A DNA stretch of 10,888 nt from Myxococcota bacterium (GCA_040752415.1 JBFMGU010000326.1:1-10888), one strand, 5' to 3'; counted from the first letter of the stretch, positions 463 to 10,721 are shown. A program made the numbers and translations. The notes: generated by a model from the sequence alone, not told the origin.

Positions 463-1290
463 TCAGCCTTTCACCGCGCCCGCCGTCAGCCCACCCACCA
501 GCTGCTTCTGCAGCGCAAAGAACAACGCCATCACCGGGATGGAAACCAGGATGGCCCCCGCCGCGAACAGTCCCCACGCCGTGCTCTTGGCGCCCACGTA
601 CTGCGCCAGCACCACCGGCAGCGTGTAGCTGGTCTCCCGGCTCATGAACTTGGCGGCCAGGATGTACTCGTTCCACGCCGTCATGAAGCTGAAGAGCGCG
701 GTGACGGCAATGCCCGGTCGCGCCAGCGGCAGGATGACCTTGGAGAGGATCTGCGCGCGGTTGGCGCCGTCGAGCATGGCGGCCTCCTCGAGGTCCTTGG
801 GCAGGGTGTCAAAGAAGCCCTTCAGCATCCACGTCGAGAACGGAACGCTCGTCGTGGCGTAGACCAGCACCAGGCCCACGAGCTGGTCGAGCAGGTTGAG
901 CCGGTCCAGGATGGCGTAGAGCGGAACCATCATCAGCGTGCCCGGGAACATCTGTGTGAGCAGCATGGCGCTCAGCGTGAGTCGACGACCGGGGAAGCGG
1001 AAGCGGCTCAGCGCGTAGGCAGCCAACGTCGCCAGCAGCACGCCCAACACCGCGGTGGCCAGGGAGACGGAGATGCTGTTGAAGAGCTGGTGGCCAAACA
1101 CCCACGTGCCATCCAGGCTGCTGTTGCCCACCACCTTGCGGAAATTCTCGTCGCTGACCTGCTGCGGGATGGGTGAGAGGCCCACCGCGAACGCCTGCGA
1201 CGGCGTCAGCGCCATGCGGATGACCCACAGCACCGGGTAGATGGTGGCAAAGCTGATGAGCACCAGCGCAACGTGGACAAGGACGTTCAT
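463..1290 (-). CDS. malG: Sugar ABC transporter permease, MalG family (275 aa)
   Basis: Motifs AAYALSRFRFPGR, TQMFPG and the EAA loop LPKDLEEAAMLDGA, plus FMTAWNEY and C-terminal QKQLVGGLTAGAVKG. The start is placed at ATG 1290 (MNVLVH...), 2 nt after the upstream TAG, with GGAG 5 nt upstream. The track's 1518 start overlaps the upstream gene by over 200 nt. Confidence 0.93.
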   Translation of the reverse strand: MNVLVHVALVLISFATIYPVLWVIRMALTPSQAFAVGLSPIPQQVSDENFRKVVGNSSLDGTWVFGHQLFNSISVSLATAVLGVLLATLAAYALSRFRFPGRRLTLSAMLLTQMFPGTLMMVPLYAILDRLNLLDQLVGLVLVYATTSVPFSTWMLKGFFDTLPKDLEEAAMLDGANRAQILSKVILPLARPGIAVTALFSFMTAWNEYILAAKFMSRETSYTLPVVLAQYVGAKSTAWGLFAAGAILVSIPVMALFFALQKQLVGGLTAGAVKG

Positions 1291-1292
1291 GG

Positions 1293-3524
1293 CTACTCCA
1301 GCGCCTTCTCCAGGCTGCCCGTGACGCGGTTGGTGAACAGCGAGTACCCCAGCAGGATGAGGAAGATCAGCGTGCTGTACGCCGCGCTGAGACCAAACGC
1401 GCCACCGGGCCCACGCTCGAACGCCCAGCGGAACGCCTCGGTGACGAGGAGGTCGGTGCGTCCGTCGGGATTGCCGCCGCTGACCAGGTAGACCACGTTG
1501 AACTGGTTGAAGGTCCACACGCTGCCCAGCAGCACCGCCGGAAGCAGCGCCGGCTTCAAGAGCGGCAGCGTGATGAGTCGGAACTGCTGCGCGCGACTGG
1601 CTCCGTCGAGACGCGCGGCTTCATACAGGTCCGAGGGAATGGACTGCAGCGCGCCCAGGCACACCACCATCATGAACGGGAAGCCCAGCCACGTGTTGGT
1701 GACCAGGTTGGCCAGGAATGCCGTCGTCACCTCGCCCATCCAGCTCATGCCGCGCGTGTTGAGCCCGAACTGCGCCAGCACCTCGTTCACCGCGCCCAGG
1801 TCCGGGTGGAACATGCCCTTCCAGATGAGCGCCGTGATGTAGCTGGGGACCGCCCACGGGATGATGAGCAGCACGCGGTAGAAGCCCTTCAGCTTCAATC
1901 CCTTGATGTTCAGCACCAACGCCAACGCCAGCCCAATCCCCACGTGCAGCGACACATTCAGCACCGTCCAGAACACCGTCATGCCCAGCGTGTACAGGAA
2001 GCGTCCGTCGGTGCCGGAGAGCAGGTCGCGGTAGTTGGCCAGGCCCACGAAGTCCCAGCGCCCGTAGGTGTGCCGGAAGAAACCCATGCCGATCCCGACG
2101 AGGAACGGGCAGAACGTCAGCACCGCCATCGCCACCAGCGCGGGTGACATGTAGACGTAGGCCAGTCGTGTGATGCGCGAATCGAACGTGCTGGAGAGCG
2201 CGCGCGTCATCTGGAGCTTGCGGTTGGTCCACACCCCCGACGCCAACGCCAGTCCCACCATCAGCAGCGTGAATCCGTGGAACGGGCCTTCCTCCTTGGG
2301 AACATCCACCTTGGCCAGCACGCCCTCCACCTTGCCTTGCGCCTCCTTGAGGGCCTCTTCCGCCGTCGTGGAGCCGTGCAGGACCAGGCCAAGCACGTTG
2401 TCCATGGGCGACCAGAGGCTCTTCATCGCCGGCGTGTTGGGCGTGGCGTAGGTGTTGGGGAGCTGGTCGCGGAAGGCCCAGAGAACTTCCCCGTCGGTGC
2501 GGCTGAGACCATCCCACGCGGACTTCAGCGCCACCGGCTGCTTCCCGACGAGAAGCCGTTCCCTCGCACTGGCTTCTCCGGCGAGAAACGCGGCGGCCAT
2601 CATGGCCAGCTCCTGGTTCTTCCCCTTGGCGCTGACGAACACGGCCTCGCTGCTGAGGAACGGGCGCGCGGGCTTTCCGCTCTCGCTGATGATGGGCAGC
2701 GGCGCCACACCGACGGGAATCTTGGGGTCCAGGTCCCCCAGCACCCACGGACCGGTGATGGCCATGGCGGCCTTCCCCTCGCTGAACAGCGCCGTCACCA
2801 GCGCCCCATTCACCTCCTGCGGGACGATCTTCTCCTGCTGCAGGAGCCGCGCGGCGAACTTCACGCTCTCCGCGTTCTCCTTGCTGTCCAGCTTGGGTCT
2901 TCCGTCGTCACCAAAGAGGGAACCGCCGAAGCCGAAGAGCCACGGCGCGTGGAAATAGAGCAGCCCGTTCTCGTAGACGAGGCCGTACTTCCCTTCGTCA
3001 ATGTTCGTGATCTTCCTACCCGCGGCGATCATCTCGTCGGTGGTGCGCGGCGGGGTGGGGAGCAGGTCCTTGCGGTACACCAGCGCCGCGCTCTTGAAGG
3101 CCAGCGGGATACCGTAGAGCTTGCCGCGGTAGATGAGCGGGGTCACCGTCTCGGGGAAGAAGCCGCGCAGCGTGGTCGGGTCCACCTCCCCTTCCATGGG
3201 ACGGAGGATGCCGGCCTCGGCCCAGTCACCAATGGTGTCGTGGGCGAAGATGAAGAGGTCCGGTCCGCGGTTGCGCGGGACCGCCGCGGTGATCTTGTCG
3301 ACGAGCGCGTCGTACGGGATGGCCAGCGGGTCCAGCGTGTATGGGACCGTGGCGTCGTCGTTGAGCCGCTTGGCCAGGTTCTCCAGCGCCTCGCGCTCTG
3401 TGCCGCGGTAGGCGTGCCACAACACCAGCCGCGTGCGACCACTGCTGGCGCCAGCGTCGGGAACCTCGTCGGCGCGCGCGGTGAACGGGAGGAGGAGCAG
3501 CGCTGCCAGGATGAGGCGACGCAT
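1293..3524 (-). CDS. malEF: Fused maltodextrin-type solute-binding protein and permease (MalE-MalF fusion, 743 aa)
   Basis: Signal peptide MRRLILAALLLLPFTARA. MalE-like motifs GPDLFIFAHD, YRKDLLPTPPRT, AMAITGPW and PNTPAMKSLW, then a short linker (~2275-2325). MalF motifs follow: LIIPWAVP, NTWLGFPFMM, EAA loop IPSDLYEAARLDGAS, FNQFNVVYL and TDLLVT. It is one uninterrupted ORF. GGAGG (3536-3532) lies 7 nt before ATG 3524 but only 1 nt before GTG 3530, so 3524 is preferred. Confidence 0.92.
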   Translation of the reverse strand: MRRLILAALLLLPFTARADEVPDAGASSGRTRLVLWHAYRGTEREALENLAKRLNDDATVPYTLDPLAIPYDALVDKITAAVPRNRGPDLFIFAHDTIGDWAEAGILRPMEGEVDPTTLRGFFPETVTPLIYRGKLYGIPLAFKSAALVYRKDLLPTPPRTTDEMIAAGRKITNIDEGKYGLVYENGLLYFHAPWLFGFGGSLFGDDGRPKLDSKENAESVKFAARLLQQEKIVPQEVNGALVTALFSEGKAAMAITGPWVLGDLDPKIPVGVAPLPIISESGKPARPFLSSEAVFVSAKGKNQELAMMAAAFLAGEASARERLLVGKQPVALKSAWDGLSRTDGEVLWAFRDQLPNTYATPNTPAMKSLWSPMDNVLGLVLHGSTTAEEALKEAQGKVEGVLAKVDVPKEEGPFHGFTLLMVGLALASGVWTNRKLQMTRALSSTFDSRITRLAYVYMSPALVAMAVLTFCPFLVGIGMGFFRHTYGRWDFVGLANYRDLLSGTDGRFLYTLGMTVFWTVLNVSLHVGIGLALALVLNIKGLKLKGFYRVLLIIPWAVPSYITALIWKGMFHPDLGAVNEVLAQFGLNTRGMSWMGEVTTAFLANLVTNTWLGFPFMMVVCLGALQSIPSDLYEAARLDGASRAQQFRLITLPLLKPALLPAVLLGSVWTFNQFNVVYLVSGGNPDGRTDLLVTEAFRWAFERGPGGAFGLSAAYSTLIFLILLGYSLFTNRVTGSLEKALE

Positions 3525-3526
3525 CT

Positions 3527-4597
3527 TCACCCCTCCATCCGCACGCCCTTGGCATCGAACAGGTGCGCGCTTCCCTCTTGGACGGACACGGGAACGCGCG
3601 TGCCCGGCTTCGGCTCCTCGCTCCCCACCAGCGACGTGAAATGCGTTCCCCCCAACGTGCCCAGCGCATAGCTCTCCGCGCCCAGGCGCTCCACCACTTC
3701 CACTTCCATCTCGCCCAGCACCTTGCCGTGCTTCCCCACGGTGACGTGCTGCGGACGGATGCCCAGCGTGACCTCACCCGTGCCCCTGGTGTCGACGTCG
3801 ATGAAGAAGCCCTTCCCGCTCACTGTTCCGTCGCTGAGCGTGCCGGGGAGGAAGTTCATGGTCGGCGTGCCCAGGAATCCCGCCACGAACTTGTTGGCCG
3901 GCTTGCGGTACACCTCCAGCGGCGGGCCCACCTGCTGCACGTAACCCTCGGCCATCACCACCACGCGGTCCGCCAGCGTCATGGCTTCCACCTGGTCATG
4001 CGTGACGTAGACGGTGGTGGTCTCGAACCGGCGACGGAGCCGGGCAATCTCCGCGCGCACCTCGCTGCGCAGCTTGGCGTCCAGGTTGCTGAGCGGCTCG
4101 TCGAAGAGGAACGCCTTGGGCTTGCGCACAATGGCGCGACCCATGGCCACGCGCTGCCGTTGTCCGCCGGAGAGCTGGCTGGGTTTGCGGTGCAACAGGT
4201 CCGTGAGGCCCAGGATGCCCGCGGCCTCCTTCACGCGCGTGTCCACCTCGGACTGCGGCGTCTTCCGCACGCGCAGGCCAAACGCAATGTTCTCGTAGAC
4301 GGTGAGGTGCGGATAGAGCGCGTAGCTCTGGAACACCATGGCCACGTCGCGCTCACCGGGGTGGACGGCGTTCACCTTGCGCTCGCCGATGAGGAGGTCC
4401 CCGCTGGTGGGCTCTTCCAGGCCCGCGATCATGCGCAGCGTGGTGCTCTTGCCGCAGCCGGAGGGCCCCACGAGGACCACGAATTCTCCGTCGGCAATCT
4501 CCAGGTCCAGGCGCGCCACGACGACCTTGGGCGCCAGGTTCTTCCGGCTGGCATCCACAAAGCTCTTGGTGACGCCACGAAAAGAGATGCTGGCCAT
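3527..4597 (-). CDS. malK: Sugar ABC transporter ATP-binding protein, MalK/MsmX/UgpC family (356 aa)
   Basis: Walker A GPSGCGKST, Q-loop VFQSYALYPH, signature LSGGQRQR, Walker B FLFDEPLSNLD and H-loop VTHDQ. It also has FVAGFLGTPTMN and a C-terminal TOBE-like region (LGIRPQH, VVERLGAE, HLFD). Confidence 0.95.
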   Translation of the reverse strand: MASISFRGVTKSFVDASRKNLAPKVVVARLDLEIADGEFVVLVGPSGCGKSTTLRMIAGLEEPTSGDLLIGERKVNAVHPGERDVAMVFQSYALYPHLTVYENIAFGLRVRKTPQSEVDTRVKEAAGILGLTDLLHRKPSQLSGGQRQRVAMGRAIVRKPKAFLFDEPLSNLDAKLRSEVRAEIARLRRRFETTTVYVTHDQVEAMTLADRVVVMAEGYVQQVGPPLEVYRKPANKFVAGFLGTPTMNFLPGTLSDGTVSGKGFFIDVDTRGTGEVTLGIRPQHVTVGKHGKVLGEMEVEVVERLGAESYALGTLGGTHFTSLVGSEEPKPGTRVPVSVQEGSAHLFDAKGVRMEG

Positions 4598-4609
4598 GGG
4601 GGAACCTGT

Positions 4610-6853
4610 TCAGAACGACGCGCTGACCGTGGCGATGCTGCGCATCACATGGTTGAGGTGCTGGTTCAGCTCGGGCTTGGAAGTGATCATATCCTTGTTC
4701 AGGTACTCCAACCGATACCAGAAACTCGCCGCGCCCATGACGTAGCGCGCCTCGACGTGAAGCTTGTTCTTGAACGTGTGGTAGTCGGGATAGTCGGCCA
4801 CGCCCCCCACCACGGCGCCGCTGCGGTTGAGCTCAAGCCAATAGCTGAAGTCATTGCCCGCGGCGAGCGTGAGGTTGTCCGTCACGGGGTAGTCCACGGC
4901 GGCGCGCAGGAAGAACAGGTGCCCGTAGTAGTCGTCCTCCGACGGCGTGAAATAGATGCGCCGGCCCTCGGCGTCGTTGGTGCCGGTGTCGCCGGTGGGG
5001 CTGCGCCAGTCGACGTCGAAGATGTACTTGCCCTTGGCGCGCAGCGTGATGCCGCGGAGGACGGGGACGGTGTAGGCGCCCTTGAGCATGGTGATGATGC
5101 TGAAGCGGTTCTGGTTCTGCGCGTAGACGGCGCGCGGGTCACGACCGCGGTCATTGGTGTTGGCGAACGTGTAGAAGTCCGTGTCCGTCATGCCCTCGTT
5201 GTAGAGGAAATCCGGGTACACGCTGCGCGTGTTGCGACCATTGCGACACATGCCCGGCTCCCAGATGGGGTCCACCGGGAGCGCGTTGATGATCTGCTGT
5301 TCCACGTCGACACCGGAGCGCTGCAGGTCGGTCTGTCCGGGGAAGCAGGTGTTGGTGTTGTAGTAGATGCCGGTGAGCTCCCCGAGGATCTGGCTGGTGC
5401 CGGGCGCCCACTCTCCCTGCAGCGTGACGCCGTGCCAGCCCACCGCGCTCTCGTAGAACGGGTCGACGAAGTCCTGGAACTCATTGGCCACGTTCAGCGT
5501 GGGGACCTGGCCGCCTTCAATGAACCCGTCGGTGAGCAGCACGTCCGCCTCCCGACGCGCACCCATCGTCGCCACCCAGTCCGGACCGATGTTGAAATAT
5601 TCGAGGCGGAGGAACGTGGCCCAGCCAAACGGGTCCAGGATCTCTCCGCGCGCAATGGCGGCCCAGCCATAGGCCACGCGGTACGGAATGGGACTGAACC
5701 CCTGGCTCCCCTCGACGGTGTTGAACGCCAGCTTGCGGTTCGGCTCACTGCGACTCACGCCCAACAGCGCCGTGCCCTTGAGCCACTCCCACTCCGCCTT
5801 TCCCGCAACGGTGCTGTTGAGATTGGTGTAGCGGAGGTTCGTCTGCACCACGCCGTCGCGCTCGTCGATCACGTTGTCGCTGCCAATGGCGTCGGGGTCG
5901 TCGGTGTCGGCCTCCTCGTCGACAATGAAGCTGTTGACGTTCTCCAGCTGCAGGTAGCGCCAGGGCTCGGTGGTGAACTTGGCAACGTAGACGGCGTCAC
6001 GCGCCCAGAAGGGGTTCTGCACCAGCGGGTCCTGGATGCCGGTGTTGTATCCCGCCGACGCGTACAGCTTGGGCAGCGCCACCCGCGCGAAGTGGTAGCT
6101 GAACCAGCGCTTGTACCCGCCGTCCAGGAAGATGCCGCGCGCGTTGTCGCGGTCGATGTAGCGCTGTTTCCCGACGGTGAAGGAGTTGAACTGGCCCAGG
6201 TCGCTGCTGCCGAAGTGCACGTAGCGCACCGTGGGGATGGGCGGGGCGGCGCGGATGAAGACGCCACGAAGCTGCATGTACGCCGCGTGGTCCATGCCCA
6301 GCGACTGTCCCGATCCGTCGATGCGACCGAAGTTGCCACTCACGGGGTCAATGCGACGGTCGCCGTTCTCGTAGAAGTCGGCCCACTGCATGCCCCAGCG
6401 GGAGGCCACGCGCGCGCCCGCCTCCACCTGGTCCCCCACGCGACCATTGAAGAGCAGCTGCAGCTCGCTGGCCGCGCCGTTGTTGCCGGAGAAGTTGTCG
6501 CCTTGCGGGTTGGGCGTGCCCCAGGTGACCGCGCCGTTGCTCTGGTCATTCTGGAAGAGCAGCTTGTTGTAGATGTCCGCGCGCATGGTCAGCGACGGAG
6601 GCGGAGGCGGCGGAGGAGCCAGGGCCGCCTGGTCCGCGCTGTACTGCTGCAGCCGCGCCTCGATGAGCTGCTCCACGTACGCCTGCTGTTCCGGCGTGAG
6701 CGGCGGTGGAGGCTGCGCGGTGTCGGCGGGGGGCGTGGTGGCGTCCTGGGCGCGTGCCGGGGATGAAGACAGCGCGGCCAGGAGGCTCAACGACGCGACG
6801 GAAAGGGACGGCCAGCGGGGCAAGTGCACCGTTGGGCGCGGAGTGTTGAGCAT
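4610..6853 (-). CDS. Putative outer-membrane beta-barrel protein of unassigned family (747 aa); candidate carbohydrate channel
   Basis: Signal peptide ends ...LSLLAALSSSPARA/QD, followed by a Pro-rich and helical N-terminal stretch. There are many amphipathic, aromatic-rich strands (e.g. FWYRLEYL, LFFLRAAVDY, LRLEYFNI) and no long hydrophobic helix in the mature part. The C-terminus IATVSASF matches the terminal-Phe beta-signal. The start at ATG 6853 has AGAGG upstream. The ORF is secure; the function is inferred. Confidence 0.75.
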   Translation of the reverse strand: MLNTPRPTVHLPRWPSLSVASLSLLAALSSSPARAQDATTPPADTAQPPPPLTPEQQAYVEQLIEARLQQYSADQAALAPPPPPPPSLTMRADIYNKLLFQNDQSNGAVTWGTPNPQGDNFSGNNGAASELQLLFNGRVGDQVEAGARVASRWGMQWADFYENGDRRIDPVSGNFGRIDGSGQSLGMDHAAYMQLRGVFIRAAPPIPTVRYVHFGSSDLGQFNSFTVGKQRYIDRDNARGIFLDGGYKRWFSYHFARVALPKLYASAGYNTGIQDPLVQNPFWARDAVYVAKFTTEPWRYLQLENVNSFIVDEEADTDDPDAIGSDNVIDERDGVVQTNLRYTNLNSTVAGKAEWEWLKGTALLGVSRSEPNRKLAFNTVEGSQGFSPIPYRVAYGWAAIARGEILDPFGWATFLRLEYFNIGPDWVATMGARREADVLLTDGFIEGGQVPTLNVANEFQDFVDPFYESAVGWHGVTLQGEWAPGTSQILGELTGIYYNTNTCFPGQTDLQRSGVDVEQQIINALPVDPIWEPGMCRNGRNTRSVYPDFLYNEGMTDTDFYTFANTNDRGRDPRAVYAQNQNRFSIITMLKGAYTVPVLRGITLRAKGKYIFDVDWRSPTGDTGTNDAEGRRIYFTPSEDDYYGHLFFLRAAVDYPVTDNLTLAAGNDFSYWLELNRSGAVVGGVADYPDYHTFKNKLHVEARYVMGAASFWYRLEYLNKDMITSKPELNQHLNHVMRSIATVSASF

Positions 6854-6861
6854 GTCTGACG

Positions 6862-6939
6862 GGTTCCTCTCGCGTCGTCGACCGATGGATGACCCAGGAA
6901 CCGACCCACCGCCCCGCATTCATCCGCGACGGCGGGCGG
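6862..6939 (-). promoter_or_regulatory. Two tandem stem-loops in the intercistronic leader of the beta-barrel gene; the second overlaps its likely RBS
   Basis: On the minus-strand mRNA, CCGCCCGC (6939-6932) pairs with GCGGGGCGG (6917-6909, 1-nt bulge). GGTTCCT (6902-6896) pairs perfectly with AGGAACC (6868-6862), which includes the AGGA of the putative Shine-Dalgarno. Confidence 0.35.
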
Positions 6940-6961
6940 CCCTATGTTGGCCTAAGCGGGA

Positions 6962-7768
6962 TCAGCCGCCGTAGACCATGGGCAGCACGGGCTTGGCCCA
7001 CTTGTCCTTGTTGGGCTTGAGGAGCTTGTGCTGCGCGTCCTTCTCGGCGTCACCGCCCTTGGCCGGGGAGACCAGCATGTCCATGAAGTGCGGGTCGTCG
7101 TCGGCGTCCATGCCGCCGCCAAAGCGGTGCGGCCCCTCGAACTCGTTGACCTTGCGGTTCAGCACGTCCTTGGCGTCGGGGTAGCCCTCGTTGGAGGACA
7201 CCAGGGCCTGCCAGCCCCAGGAGGCCTTCGGCTCACCCAGGTCCTTCTTGCTCACCAGCGCGGTGATGGTCTTGCCCTTGGCGCTGACGGAGCGGGGCAC
7301 CACCAACATCGCCTTGTGCTTGGGGCTCTTCTGGGCCACCTCGGAGCGGACGCGCGCGGCGGGCTGCGGGGAGATGAGGATGACCTTCTCGAACGCACTC
7401 TCGTCGGCAAACGTGGCGTTCATGCCAGCAATGGCCTGCGTCTCACCGCTCTTGGGCTTGTGGTCGGTGTCCACGTAGACCTGCACGAACTGCGTGGAGA
7501 AGTTGGCACCGCCCTGCTTGGCCATGCCCCACGGATCCTCGATGGAGGCGTCGAACGTGAGGTCGATCTGGATGTCCGGACCGGCCTCCTTCACGCTCAT
7601 CTCGACGAGATCAAAGCTGCCGCGCGTGTACACGGCGTCGGTGGGATAGGTGTAGCTGCCGGGGCCGTCGTCGTCACCCTTGGGGTCCTTGAGGGTGACG
7701 GAGAAGGCGGCGTGGGCGGGAAGCGCGTGGGTGAGCAGCGCCAGGATCAGGAGAGGAGAAAAGCGCAT
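6962..7768 (-). CDS. Secreted stand-alone glucodextranase C-terminal / DOMON-like domain protein (268 aa)
   Basis: Signal peptide MRFSPLLILALLTHALPAHA. Signature DPKGDDDGPGSYTYPT...GSFDL, then DPWG...NFSTQFVQVYVDTD and RFGGG...DPHFMDML. These motifs are characteristic of the Glucodextran_C/DOMON-like module found in glucodextranases and GH57 amylopullulanases. GGAGG (7779-7775) lies 6 nt before ATG 7768. Confidence 0.88.
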   Translation of the reverse strand: MRFSPLLILALLTHALPAHAAFSVTLKDPKGDDDGPGSYTYPTDAVYTRGSFDLVEMSVKEAGPDIQIDLTFDASIEDPWGMAKQGGANFSTQFVQVYVDTDHKPKSGETQAIAGMNATFADESAFEKVILISPQPAARVRSEVAQKSPKHKAMLVVPRSVSAKGKTITALVSKKDLGEPKASWGWQALVSSNEGYPDAKDVLNRKVNEFEGPHRFGGGMDADDDPHFMDMLVSPAKGGDAEKDAQHKLLKPNKDKWAKPVLPMVYGG

Positions 7769-7793
7769 GGTCAGCCTCCAGCAAGGGGTGGCC

Positions 7794-7823
7794 CTTCTAG
7801 TTCTCGGCATTGTTCAGGGTCAA
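7794..7823 (-). promoter_or_regulatory. Candidate sigma70-type promoter for the DOMON/beta-barrel/malK/malEF/malG operon
   Basis: Minus strand reads TTGACC (7823-7818), an 18-nt spacer, then TAGAAG (7799-7794). It lies 25 nt upstream of the 7768 start, in a locally AT-richer intergenic stretch. Confidence 0.5.
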
Positions 7824-7824
7824 C

Positions 7825-7850
7825 GCGCACCTGTCCGAGGGACGGCGCGC
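7825..7850 (-). terminator. GC-rich hairpin downstream of the discoidin-domain gene (possible terminator or pause site)
   Basis: Minus strand GCGCGCC-GTCC-CTC-GGAC-A-GGTGCGC forms an 11-bp stem with one G-U pair and one bulge, 18 nt after the stop. It has no U-tract, so a terminator role is uncertain. Confidence 0.3.
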
Positions 7851-7868
7851 CAGGCTTGAGACGCCCGC

Positions 7869-8834
7869 TCAGCCCTTCTTCTTCTGCTGCTTGCGGGAGA
7901 GCTCCTGGATTTCCCCGCTGCTGAGCAGGCTGCAGAAGGCCACTTCCGCCACGTGGGTGTCGTCCTTGCGGTCGCCCAGGTACACGCTGTCCACGCGCAG
8001 GACCATCTTCACCACCTCGGGCTCCGCCACCTTGATGAAACGCATCTCCGGCTTGTTGGCAAAGCTGACCTCCGTCTTGTTCCCCGCGAGGTCAATGCCC
8101 AGGTCGGCGAAGTCCAGGTTGGCGGAGGTGTCGCCGGTGGTGCTCTGCGTGCTCACCTCCAGGACCGCGCGGTGGATGCGGTTGAAGTCCCGGAAATCCC
8201 GTTGTCCGGTGCCCTTGCCCGGGTACACTGCCATCAGGCCCACGCCCACCGGCTTGGGAAACTCGAAGGTCAGCGACTCCCCGATCCCCGTCCCCGACGC
8301 ACCCTCCGCCCAGCTCGTCGTGATGTCCTGGTCGTAGACGTTCTTGACGTCGGCGTTGTCGGTGCGGACGGTGCTGGAGGCCTTGAGCTTGATGCCCCCG
8401 AAGGGATCCCCCGCGTCGCCACGGAGGCCCAGCTCCTTGCCCAGCGTGAGCGTGAGCGGGCGCAGGTCATCCGCGGCGCGGTCTCCGCGTGCAAGCTGCA
8501 GGTTCAGCTCCTTGCCCTGCACGCCCACGTCGGCGGGATAGGTGTCCTCCAGCAGCACGCAACCGGCGTTGCGCAGCACCCCGCCCTTCTGCTTGAGCAC
8601 CAGGATTCCCCCAGCGGTGTTGCCGTCGTCCTGGCGGTCGCGAAAGGCGAGGAGCGTCTCCTTGAGGACGTCGCCGTCGAGGTCCACGTCCAGCACCTTG
8701 GTGATGCGGTAGTCGCGCGCCAGGGCTTCATACTCGGGCGTGGCCTTGTACGGGCCGTCCTCGGCGCCACGGACCGCCCCCACGGCCAGTGTGGCAACCA
8801 GGGGAAGCAGACGGGAGACGAGGTGACGACGCAT
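7869..8834 (-). CDS. Secreted protein with a C-terminal discoidin-like (NADase-type glycan-binding / F5/8 type C-like) domain (321 aa)
   Basis: Signal peptide MRRHLVSRLLPLVATLAVGAVRGA and a Ca-binding-like loop DVDLDGDVLKE. The C-terminal motif series KASST...NVYDQDITTSWAEGASGTGIGESLTFEF...FNR...LRVDSVYLGDRKDDTHVAEVAF matches that fold family. ATG 8834 is preferred over the in-frame TTG 8843. Confidence 0.78.
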   Translation of the reverse strand: MRRHLVSRLLPLVATLAVGAVRGAEDGPYKATPEYEALARDYRITKVLDVDLDGDVLKETLLAFRDRQDDGNTAGGILVLKQKGGVLRNAGCVLLEDTYPADVGVQGKELNLQLARGDRAADDLRPLTLTLGKELGLRGDAGDPFGGIKLKASSTVRTDNADVKNVYDQDITTSWAEGASGTGIGESLTFEFPKPVGVGLMAVYPGKGTGQRDFRDFNRIHRAVLEVSTQSTTGDTSANLDFADLGIDLAGNKTEVSFANKPEMRFIKVAEPEVVKMVLRVDSVYLGDRKDDTHVAEVAFCSLLSSGEIQELSRKQQKKKG

Positions 8835-8888
8835 GGCTCTCAAGGGCTCTGGGTATCGGCCGGGGGTGGGGATGAGTTTCCGGGCCTG

Positions 8889-8916
8889 ATCATGCTCGCT
8901 TGGGCGTGGGGGTCAA
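8889..8916 (-). promoter_or_regulatory. Candidate sigma70-type promoter for the discoidin-domain gene
   Basis: Minus strand TTGACC (8916-8911), a 16-nt spacer, then CATGAT (8894-8889). Confidence 0.4.
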
Positions 8917-8990: not shown

Positions 8991-10721
8991 ATGCCAGGTG
9001 GTCGAGAGCGGCGCGGCGGAGGGTTCCTGTTTTCATCCCGTCTGGACGAGACGGTGTTCACGCCGGAGATGTTCACGGCGGATCAACTTGCGCTGCACGA
9101 CACCGTGGCGGCGTTCACCGCCAAGGAGGTCATTCCCCGCACTCCCGAGCTGGAGCGCAAGGAGCCGGGCCTGCTTCCGTCGCTGCTGCGCAAGATGGGG
9201 GAGCTGGGCGGCCTGGGCCTCGACGTGCCCGAGGAATACGGCGGCACCGGCCAGTCCAAGGTGACCAGCATGCTGGTGAGTGAGGCCACGAGCCAGGAAG
9301 CCAATTGGACGGTGACATTTGGCGCGCACACCGGCATCGGTTCGCTGCCCATCGTCTTCTTCGGGAACGCGGAGCAGAAGGCGCGCTATCTGCCCAAGCT
9401 GGCGACGGGAGAATGGGTGGCGGCCTATGCGTTGACGGAGAGCGGCAGCGGCTCCGACGCATTGAATGCCCGCGCCACCGCGCGGCTCTCCTCCGACGGG
9501 AAACACTGGATCCTCAACGGCCAGAAGCAATGGATCACCAACGCGGGCTTCGCGGACGTGTTCACGGTGTTCGCCAAGATCGACGGGGAGCGGTTCAGCG
9601 CGTTCATCGTGGAGAAGGGCTACCCGGGCGTCTCGGTGGGGCCGGAGGAGAACAAGCTGGGCATCCGTGGCTCGTCGACGCGCACGCTGATTCTCGAGGA
9701 CACGCCGGTGCCGGTGGGCAACCTGCTGGGAGAGGCGGGCAAGGGCCACAAGATTGCGTTCAACATCCTGAACGTGGGGCGGCTGAAGCTGGGGATCTTC
9801 GCCGTGGGCGGCGTGAAGTCCATCCTGAAGCAGGGGTTGAAGTACCCGCAGGAGCGCAAGCAGTTCGGCAAGCCCATCATCGAGTTCGGACTGATCCGGG
9901 AGAAGCTGAGCAACATCATCGTCGACCTCTACGCGCTGGAGGCCATGGGCTACCGCGCGGCCGGCGGCATCGACGAGTTCATTGCCGAGACGAGCAAGGG
10001 CATGGAGGGGCTGGAGGAGTTCAACGTGGAGAGCTCCATCCTGAAGGTGTACGGCTCGGAGCTGCTCTTCCGCACCGCCGACGAGGCGCTGCAGATCCTC
10101 GGCGGGTACGGCTACATGGAGGACTACCCGGTGGCCAAGGTGTACCGGGACGTGCGCATCAACCGCATCTTCGAGGGCACCAACGAGATCAACCGCATGC
10201 TCGTCCCCGGCGTGATCCTGAAGCGCGCCATGAAGGGCGAGTTGCCGCTCATGGACGAGTACACCGCCTTGGACCCCGACAACGTCCCCACCTACCGCCT
10301 CCCCGACGCGCCCCTGGCCCGCGCCACCGAGCAGGCCCGCATCCTCGCCGTGGTGCTCACCGGCAAGGCGGTGGCCAAGCACATGATGGAGCTGGAGAAC
10401 CAGCAGGAGATCCTCGCCGCGCTGGCCGACGTCATGATGAGCGCGTACGCGCTGGACAGCGTGCGTCGACGGGTGGCGCACACCGGCGGCGCACCGGATC
10501 ACCAGCTGCTGGGTGAGACGTTTGCCGCCGGTGAGGTGGACCGCGTCATTGCGCGCGCTTCCCGACTGGCACTGGACCTGGGCGGACCGGAGCTGCGCAA
10601 GCAGTTGTCGACGGTGCTGGAGCCGTTGCCGCTGAACCGCATGGAGGGGCTGAGGCAGGTGGCCACCGCGCTCGTCGAGCACAATGGGTACTGGCTGGGC
10701 GCGAGCGCACCGAGGAAGTGA
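8991..10721 (+). CDS. fadE: Acyl-CoA dehydrogenase, long form with C-terminal extension (FadE/YusJ, VLCAD/ACAD9-like; 576 aa)
   Basis: N-terminal GGGFL...VFTPEMF, then AYALTESGSGSDA, NGQKQWITNAG, KLGIRGSST, ERKQFG, GGYGYMEDY and RIFEGTNEINR with the catalytic Glu. An extra C-terminal helical domain contains QQEILAALAD. GGAGG lies 7 nt before the ATG. Confidence 0.93.
   Translation: MPGGRERRGGGFLFSSRLDETVFTPEMFTADQLALHDTVAAFTAKEVIPRTPELERKEPGLLPSLLRKMGELGGLGLDVPEEYGGTGQSKVTSMLVSEATSQEANWTVTFGAHTGIGSLPIVFFGNAEQKARYLPKLATGEWVAAYALTESGSGSDALNARATARLSSDGKHWILNGQKQWITNAGFADVFTVFAKIDGERFSAFIVEKGYPGVSVGPEENKLGIRGSSTRTLILEDTPVPVGNLLGEAGKGHKIAFNILNVGRLKLGIFAVGGVKSILKQGLKYPQERKQFGKPIIEFGLIREKLSNIIVDLYALEAMGYRAAGGIDEFIAETSKGMEGLEEFNVESSILKVYGSELLFRTADEALQILGGYGYMEDYPVAKVYRDVRINRIFEGTNEINRMLVPGVILKRAMKGELPLMDEYTALDPDNVPTYRLPDAPLARATEQARILAVVLTGKAVAKHMMELENQQEILAALADVMMSAYALDSVRRRVAHTGGAPDHQLLGETFAAGEVDRVIARASRLALDLGGPELRKQLSTVLEPLPLNRMEGLRQVATALVEHNGYWLGASAPRK

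Follow-up and report, generated by a model that had tools for sequence, protein, structure and literature searches.

Gene organization of the locus

The window analyzed here, that is, the whole stretch of DNA under study, is the entire 10,888-bp contig C253 of an 11-Mb genome (520 contigs) from the Myxococcota, the phylum holding the myxobacteria. It carries six successive minus-strand genes encoding a discoidin protein, a PF09985 protein (hereafter, the partner), a 747-amino acid (aa) protein with the hallmarks of an outer-membrane β-barrel (hereafter, the barrel), a MalK-type ATP-binding cassette (ABC) ATPase, a MalE–MalF fusion, and MalG (Table 1). The importer composed of MalK, the fusion, and MalG is translationally packed behind the two exported proteins. 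The partner gene stops 108 nt before the start of the barrel gene, whose TGA (4612–4610) is followed after 12 nt by the MalK ATG (4597), a junction that was read directly. Two nucleotides separate the MalK TGA (3529–3527) from the ATG of the fusion (3524), for which an alternative GTG at 3530 would overlap by 4 nt, and again two separate the TAG of the fusion (1295–1293) from the MalG ATG (1290). The original prediction, made from the sequence alone, had described five co-directional genes with gaps of 108, 12, 2, and 2 bp, and reading base by base confirmed every junction; the gene order given in its title, MalEF-G-K, is to be corrected to partner–barrel–MalK–MalEF–MalG.

Table 1. Coordinates of the features of the window, listed in the direction of transcription
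Feature	Position	Strand	Remarks
Promoter-like site TTGACC-16-CATGAT	8889..8916	-	Precedes the discoidin gene; a unit of six genes may start here
Secreted NADase-type F5/8 type C (discoidin) protein, 324 aa	7869..8843	-	PF25302 E 4.1e-19; NF047619 E 9.2e-21
Candidate promoter TTGACC(7823-7818)-N18-TAGAAG(7799-7794)	7794..7823	-	Read from the sequence, 5' of the partner gene
PF09985 (Glucodextran_C, 'DOMON-like') secreted protein, 268 aa	6962..7768	-	PF09985 E 4.8e-48
Unclassified outer-membrane β-barrel candidate, 747 aa	4610..6853	-	Signal peptide, barrel hallmarks; proposed maltoporin equivalent
MalK/UgpC-type ABC ATPase, 356 aa	3527..4597	-	ABC_tran 5.2e-33, OB_MalK, TOBE_2
MalE–MalF fusion, 745/743 aa	1293..3530 (start 3530 or 3524)	-	SBP_bac_1 7.1e-35 and BPD_transp_1 1.1e-21 in one frame
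MalG-type permease, 275 aa	463..1290	-	BPD_transp_1 6.2e-19

The importer is of the CUT1 type, with an SBP_bac_1 domain, two BPD_transp_1 permeases, and an ATPase ending in a MalK-type OB/TOBE tail. MalF (5.5e-57; 194 bits, cut-off 392) and MalE (2e-41; 142 bits, cut-off 291) for the fusion, and MalG (NF008231; 3e-52; 178 bits, cut-off 261) for the last gene, were the best-scoring named families, though under their cut-offs. The ATPase scored best with the UgpC subfamily (NF008653; 459 bits, over the cut-off of 432) and second with the MalK equivalog (390 bits, under 568). The fusion consists of a signal peptide, a MalE-type domain (about residues 30–410), one linking transmembrane helix, and a MalF-type permease core. 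Its matches in the PDB are Thermotoga maritima MalE1 (4.9e-50), Escherichia coli MalF (1.9e-48), and Bdellovibrio bacteriovorus 6FFL ('Maltose/maltodextrin transport permease homologue'; 7.9e-34), and its MalE domain is nearest to maltose- or maltodextrin-binding proteins of Thermotoga and Pyrococcus and to 6FFL. The last, which we take to be the MalE domain of a Bdellovibrio MalE–MalF fusion, would likewise be tethered to MalF; the resemblance concerns the inner-membrane half of the present locus only. The tethered MalE is not special to the barrel architecture, as MalE–MalF fusions are widespread in mal loci of the phylum, whether or not a barrel is present (5/5 source-clade relatives; 13/20 barrel-free mal loci). 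Altogether, the importer is predicted to work like a MalEFGK2 system without being an equivalog. The inner-membrane half of the locus is ordinary; the new part is the outer-membrane barrel with its partner.

A binding protein–permease fusion occurs twice in the source genome. The second one (757 aa; locus L192, G000:C244, 5473–7746 (-)) is followed by a MalG-like permease (4670–5476 (-)) and belongs to the only other MalG-type system of the genome. Its surroundings lack genes for an ATPase, a barrel, or a PF09985 protein, and the same contig carries DnaK- and DnaJ-like genes.

As for transcription, a GGAGG ribosome-binding site at 7779–7775 lies ahead of the partner ATG (7768), and the TTGACCC block of the candidate promoter upstream and the GGAGGCTnACCATG block are identical in the closest relative (L031), which keeps the ribosome-binding site as well. 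The one promoter proposed in the original prediction is thus present as a TTGACC-N18-TAGAAG element, but it was not called by a consensus scan, the only sigma-70-type match of which (0.6 expected in shuffles) is the site at 8916–8889 preceding the discoidin gene, poorly kept in the closest relative. Based on this match, the unit may contain six genes rather than five, with the discoidin gene as a possible glycan-binding member. The discoidin protein has its NADase-type F5/8 type C glycan-binding domain at the C-terminus and an N-terminal half without annotation, and its gene, separated from the partner gene by 100 nt, is conserved at this place in no relative but the closest (L031/L091).

The barrel and its exported partner form an evolutionary unit

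The 747-aa protein shows the general features of outer-membrane β-barrels, namely a Sec signal, a C-terminal aromatic β-signal, an alternating, amphipathic strand pattern, and no transmembrane helices, with at most 12 hydrophobic residues in any 19-residue window beyond residue 40. The chain ends in ...SIATVSASF, and the last residue is Phe or Trp in 118 of the 120 relatives among those listed. The signal peptide is followed by a proline-rich and helical N-terminal extension (about residues 25–85). In this protein and its closest relatives, the extension includes a short helix (EQQAYVEQLIEARLQQ) with a proline-rich stretch on either side; the helix is absent from more distant members and is reminiscent of the stalks of SLH-barrels.

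No Pfam or NCBIfam family matched the protein, and the family profile found no match among PDB sequences at E ≤ 10. None of 45 family members matched LamB (PF02264), Plug, TonB_dep_Rec, Alginate_exp, or DUF6029 at E ≤ 10, while TonB receptors in neighboring genes of other loci were detected normally; PF13505 (OMP_b-brl) gave weak matches in 4 of the 45 (best E, 0.015). In profile–profile comparison (hhalign), the probability was 6.9% against seven LamB-type proteins of the phylum, and the two are therefore not regarded as homologous; it was 3.5% against 11 Alginate_exp (PF13372) proteins of the phylum, and the real Alginate_exp gene of the source genome sits on a different contig. The statement that the barrel resembles neither LamB nor TonB-dependent transporters is thus borne out. 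The family is small and unnamed, comprising 397 proteins at 90% clustering, all named 'hypothetical', and only 133 clusters at 50% identity among 1.84 billion representatives. A profile search with the family alignment gave no additional lineages in the 120 matches listed, and the distant members come from metagenome-assembled genomes labeled Pseudomonadota, Syntrophaceae, and Steroidobacteraceae. At L040 (6187–10005 (+)), a homologue is part of a 1272-aa frame with about 600 unannotated N-terminal residues, with a gene for a TPR–TonB receptor adjoining and no PF09985 gene adjacent.

Structural comparison provided leads only. The neighbors of a 47%-identical homologue by language-model features (scores, 0.93–0.98) and by its Atlas model (template-modeling (TM) scores, 0.46–0.78) are large uncharacterized barrels, the Atlas model of the homologue being itself of low confidence (predicted TM score (pTM), 0.64; pLDDT, 0.57). 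The neighbor clusters include one with SLH domains on a similar barrel (TM scores, 0.57/0.52) and one in which the barrel is joined to CBM48, a glycogen-binding module, as well as DUF6029 proteins and Fibrobacterota proteins labeled 'Alginate export'. All are likewise large barrels by feature score or Atlas model, but no relation to them was found at the sequence level, and the neighbors are themselves unstudied. Mean-field covariation (267 sequences; effective number, 142; reduced alphabet) yielded only signals driven by gaps near the termini, from which no strand ladder could be drawn.

The partner scores 164 bits with PF09985 (cut-off, 22) over profile positions 3–215 of 228. It has a Sec signal (...AHA|AF) and no catalytic domain in its 268 residues, in agreement with the earlier description of a non-catalytic module ahead of the barrel. 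It also matches residues 779–876 of glucodextranase (1UG9/1ULV; E 5e-13), with an N-terminal DPxGDDxGPGxYxYPT motif. This region belongs to domain C of the Arthrobacter globiformis enzyme (GH15), the founder of PF09985; here, in contrast, the domain is free-standing, exported, and genetically coupled to a porin, not a hydrolase. Database sources call relatives of the partner 'carbohydrate-binding DOMON domain-containing protein', and PF09985 is accordingly taken to have a DOMON-like fold. The company that the domain keeps on glycoside hydrolases suggests that it binds glucans. Free partners carry plain Sec signals, with the conserved domain beginning at the cleavage site. Natural partner–barrel fusions (P0116–P0118, P0148, and L045) are arranged as signal peptide, PF09985 domain, low-complexity linker of 30–45 residues, and barrel.

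To place the pair in the phylum, 401 genomes, including the unpublished G195, were surveyed, and 122 distinct barrel loci were collected from two samplings; the records of the relatives are labeled Myxococcota, Myxococcales, or 'Deltaproteobacteria' metagenome-assembled genomes. As had been anticipated for other myxobacteria, similar loci do exist, with the barrel in at least 120 of the 401 genomes, a count that is a lower bound. PF09985 was found in 141 of the 401, namely in 119/120 barrel-positive genomes versus 22/281 barrel-negative ones, and the sole barrel-positive genome without it is 75% complete. Of the 110 loci whose upstream flank spans 1.5 kb or more, 89 have a PF09985 gene as the immediate upstream neighbor of the barrel, in the same orientation. 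Among the 21 loci scored as lacking an adjacent partner, at least two (L133 and L170) are artefacts of the gap rule, judging from gene calls. Both the barrel and the PF09985 gene are single in the source genome. Pairwise distances of partners and barrels correlate with r = 0.82 (69 pairs), a descriptive figure that shared ancestry explains equally well. The barrel and its partner form an evolutionary unit.

Genomic contexts and the slot of LamB

Gene neighborhoods were tallied in 79 distinct loci flanked by 6 kb or more at either end. More than one mal gene is present in 39 of them, a GH13 or pullulanase gene in 42, and either in 46 (26/59 once 20 closely related loci are removed). The neighborhood check suggested in the original prediction thus came out positive, with barrel homologues next to PF09985 genes and very often next to genes for MalEFGK and α-glucan hydrolases. 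This linkage spans at least five GTDB families and takes three gene orders. In the source clade (i), the order is partner–barrel–MalK–MalEF–MalG, and all six members with enough flank show barrel–MalK–MalEF–MalG or a divergent form of it. In a clade resembling polysaccharide utilization loci (PUL-like; ii), pullulanase or GH13 genes, the partner (often lipoprotein-like), the barrel, and two unannotated exported proteins are followed by a longer PF09985 paralogue and then by MalE–MalK–MalF–MalG. In loci of large genomes (iii; L071–L090), the order is GH13–MalK–MalE–MalF–MalG–partner–barrel–PF09985 paralogue–GH13–pullulanase; the 90% cluster of the L071 barrel contains Corallococcus proteins named 'hypothetical protein'. 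The source genome has 14 GH13 matches, no match to the LamB family, and, in its 11 Mb, only two MalG-type permeases (E ≤ 1e-10), one of which abuts the barrel. The expected tie between barrel and sugar genes holds for 46 of the 79 loci and fails for the other 33, which have none within 6–9 kb. The largest clade of the tree is of this non-sugar kind, and three genomes with two copies (G039, G072, and G082) have one barrel inside a glucan locus and one outside. The family at large is a channel-plus-partner module, and its link to glucan loci is confined to part of the branches.

Several further features of these loci were recorded. In PUL-like loci, the two proteins after the barrel are conserved and without Pfam match (L047, 9911–11275 and 11206–12264; L056, 9969–11378 and 11395–12393). 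The first, of about 454 aa, begins like a lipoprotein and ends in a region rich in Trp that resembles a binding module, and the paralogue of PF09985 that comes after them is about 415 aa long. Within the non-sugar clade, L122, L133, and L154 (barrel at about 9000–11000) share a conserved DnaK–DnaJ–partner–barrel arrangement, followed by a protein of 360–400 aa with a C-terminal T4 gp19-like tail-tube domain. At L071, genes for an AHH-nuclease protein and an Imm11/SUFU immunity-type protein (11930–13369 and 13382–14635) interrupt the α-glucan locus, separating its PF09985 paralogue from its GH13 gene.

MalG orthologues (E ≤ 1e-60) were found in 264 of the 401 genomes, including 116 of the 120 that are barrel-positive. 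Among mal loci free of the barrel, one group contains GH13, a weak LamB-like protein (32 bits), a pullulanase, and MalK–MalEF–MalG. In another (L213–L220), GH13–MalK–MalE–MalF–MalG–PF09985 is followed by a full LamB porin, which is order (iii) with LamB in the place of the barrel. The porin was identified by PF02264 in all six loci tested with Pfam (E 6e-97 to 2e-113), and in two further loci by coordinates and tblastn. Across these syntenic loci, the last position is occupied by the barrel in 19 and by LamB in eight. In the partner tree, the eight LamB-paired partners form a clade (support, 0.996), with the 19 partners that accompany the barrel in order (iii) as its sister group (0.993). LamB-family matches were also obtained in 18 of the 22 genomes that have PF09985 and no barrel. 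That two unrelated barrels fill one slot of a conserved operon is a classic mark of equivalent function, and the barrel is therefore most likely a maltoporin equivalent. Since the partner accompanies either porin, it belongs to the porin step and is not a plug made for one barrel; the supposed specificity of the DOMON-like protein for the barrel has to be given up.

In mal loci free of the barrel, giant proteins (913–1535 aa) are encoded within a few kb of MalK/MalEF, several of them directly after MalG; apart from an IPT/TIG domain at the N-terminus, they have no Pfam match (L194, 10657–14097; L203, 10325–13777; L204, 5224–9831; L195, 5645–9790; L212, 10444–13554; L196, 13570–16623; L209, 12180–14921). 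In the window itself, a FadE-type acyl-CoA dehydrogenase gene (NF058590, 669 bits; 8991–10721 (+)) is divergent from the discoidin gene and also adjoins the locus in the closest relative. No RNA family of Rfam matched, and neither a sequencing run nor an RNA data set was listed for positions 463–8900.

A possible uptake route for α-glucans and its alternatives

We consider it fairly probable that the locus encodes a complete envelope-spanning route for the uptake of maltodextrins or α-glucan fragments, in which the barrel is an unrelated, larger equivalent of LamB and the partner an accessory of the porin step. In such a route, GH13 enzymes or pullulanase would release oligosaccharides outside the cell, which would cross the outer membrane through the barrel into the periplasm, be bound there by the membrane-tethered MalE domain, and be imported by MalFGK2. 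The partner, which most likely faces the periplasm and would sit on or near the channel, may bind the emerging glucan chain or couple the channel to the importer. The barrel–partner pair would be a channel module recruited to α-glucan loci in several lineages, and other solutes are possible elsewhere. Of the third uptake architecture put forward in the original prediction, the core is retained, i.e., an outer-membrane route that is neither LamB nor TonB-dependent, coupled to MalEFGK and backed by the exchange with LamB; the place and specificity of the partner and the novelty of the tethered MalE need correction.

The maltose system of E. coli, with malK–lamB–malM and malEFG, likewise encodes a binding protein-dependent MalFGK2 together with a channel and a small exported accessory, MalM there and the PF09985 protein here. 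LamB is an 18-strand porin; compared with the LamB of the sister loci, the barrel is about 300 residues longer and has no profile similarity. The locus also differs from the E. coli system in that the accessory is encoded upstream and MalE is fused to MalF. The TonB-dependent glycan transporters, such as SusC/SusD of Bacteroides and MalA of Caulobacter, likewise serve outer-membrane glycan entry in PUL-type loci with GH13, pullulanase, and binding proteins, whereas neither the 747-aa protein nor the 45 family members have Plug or TonB_dep_Rec, and the partner is not SusD-like.

An alternative places the DOMON-like protein on the cell surface, where it would catch starch or glycogen like a binder of the SusD/E/F kind and feed the barrel, as the original prediction had supposed. 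Secreted glycoside hydrolases carry PF09985 as an accessory module (Pfam description; glucodextranase match), partners of the PUL-like clade often have a lipobox-like Cys and a Gly/Ser/Ala-rich linker, and the fusion linker of 30–45 residues is long enough to thread a pore. A lipobox-like pattern occurs in 13 of 49 sugar-context partners versus 0 of 21 non-sugar ones, although the pattern is crude and some of the 13 are false. Two of the lipoprotein forms, however, have Lys at position +2, an inner-membrane retention signal in Myxococcus. Moreover, the plain Sec signal of free partners with the domain starting at the cleavage site, the location of the domain N-terminal to the barrel in fusions, where periplasmic domains of outer-membrane proteins usually stand, and the pairing of the same partner subfamily with LamB, a porin unable to export a folded 27-kDa protein, together favor a partner that faces the periplasm. 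This is the simpler and most likely placement as judged from signal type and fusion order; the partners of PUL-type loci that resemble lipoproteins still speak for exposure at the surface, which we regard as quite unlikely overall.

A different objection is that the pair may be a general porin or an envelope-structural device, for example a tether between the outer membrane and the cell wall in the style of SLH-barrels, with no glucan specificity and with a mal adjacency that reflects shared regulation or history. The 33 non-sugar loci, including the largest tree clade, fit this proposal, as do the Pfam label 'SLH-like' for PF09985, the Atlas neighbor cluster with SLH domains on a similar barrel, and the short helical N-terminal stalk of the 747-aa barrel between proline-rich linkers. 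It accounts less well for the recurrence of mal/GH13 linkage in three gene orders and at least five GTDB families, and for the dedicated maltoporin that fills the slot in sister loci; the genomes with two barrels, only one of which belongs to a glucan locus, fit substrate-specialized paralogues. In addition, sugar ABC systems are rare, with two MalG-type permeases in the source genome and, according to a study of M. xanthus (PMC3924187), only six ABC-type sugar transport proteins in that species, so that chance adjacency is unlikely. On balance, this proposal appears unlikely to us.

Several observations nevertheless weigh against a dedicated glucan route. All four Mal scores are under the NCBIfam cut-offs for the E. 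coli equivalogs, so that the substrate is not fixed and may be maltose, maltodextrin, trehalose, or cyclodextrin. Of the 281 barrel-negative genomes, 148 have a MalG orthologue as well, and 33 of the 120 barrel-positive genomes hold a LamB-family match elsewhere, which rules out strictly complementary distributions of LamB and the barrel. The 33 of 79 well-flanked loci without a mal or GH13 gene have unrelated neighbors, such as DnaK–DnaJ upstream and a gp19-domain protein downstream, and the barrel family is therefore not intrinsically a glucan channel. The genomes compared are related and thus non-independent samples, and the putative periplasmic place of the partner is read only from signal type and fusion order.

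It is also conceivable that the barrel is a secretion or display device that exports or anchors glucan-active proteins or the partner, with PF09985 as a docking module. Some PF09985 domains stand alone and others are part of enzymes (Pfam description), and in the PUL-like loci the barrel is followed by two exported proteins without annotation and by a second PF09985 paralogue of greater length. At the source locus, however, there is no candidate cargo besides the partner and the discoidin protein; the same slot is filled by LamB, which is not a protein exporter; and the barrel has no similarity to known secretion barrels. We hold this proposal to be very improbable. Export of polysaccharide was ruled out, as the ABC system, with its binding protein, is of the importer type. 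As an extension of the uptake route that we favor, PF09985 proteins could be a hitherto overlooked class of porin adaptors that dock at the periplasmic mouth of two unrelated channels, the barrel and LamB, seize the entering glucan chain, and pass it to the tethered MalE, so that, with the large barrel, long chains such as glycogen of lysed prey would be imported without TonB energy by a third mechanism; we mention this as a rather unlikely, speculative variant.

To our knowledge, only two routes for α-glucans across the diderm outer membrane are established, the LamB-type porins and the TonB-dependent transporters of the SusC/MalA type. We found no description of a PF09985–barrel or PF09985–LamB module in a literature search covering few subscription journals, and a passage of PMC5286417 only lists the PF09985 domain. 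More than 100 loci of the Myxococcota contain an unrelated, unnamed barrel family together with a DOMON-like partner, and in syntenic loci this barrel stands where sister genomes have LamB. Should it conduct maltodextrins, the barrel would represent a new porin family, and PF09985, a domain widespread on glycoside hydrolases, would receive its first function. Predatory myxobacteria possess very few sugar transporters, and such a route may account for their use of prey glycogen or starch.

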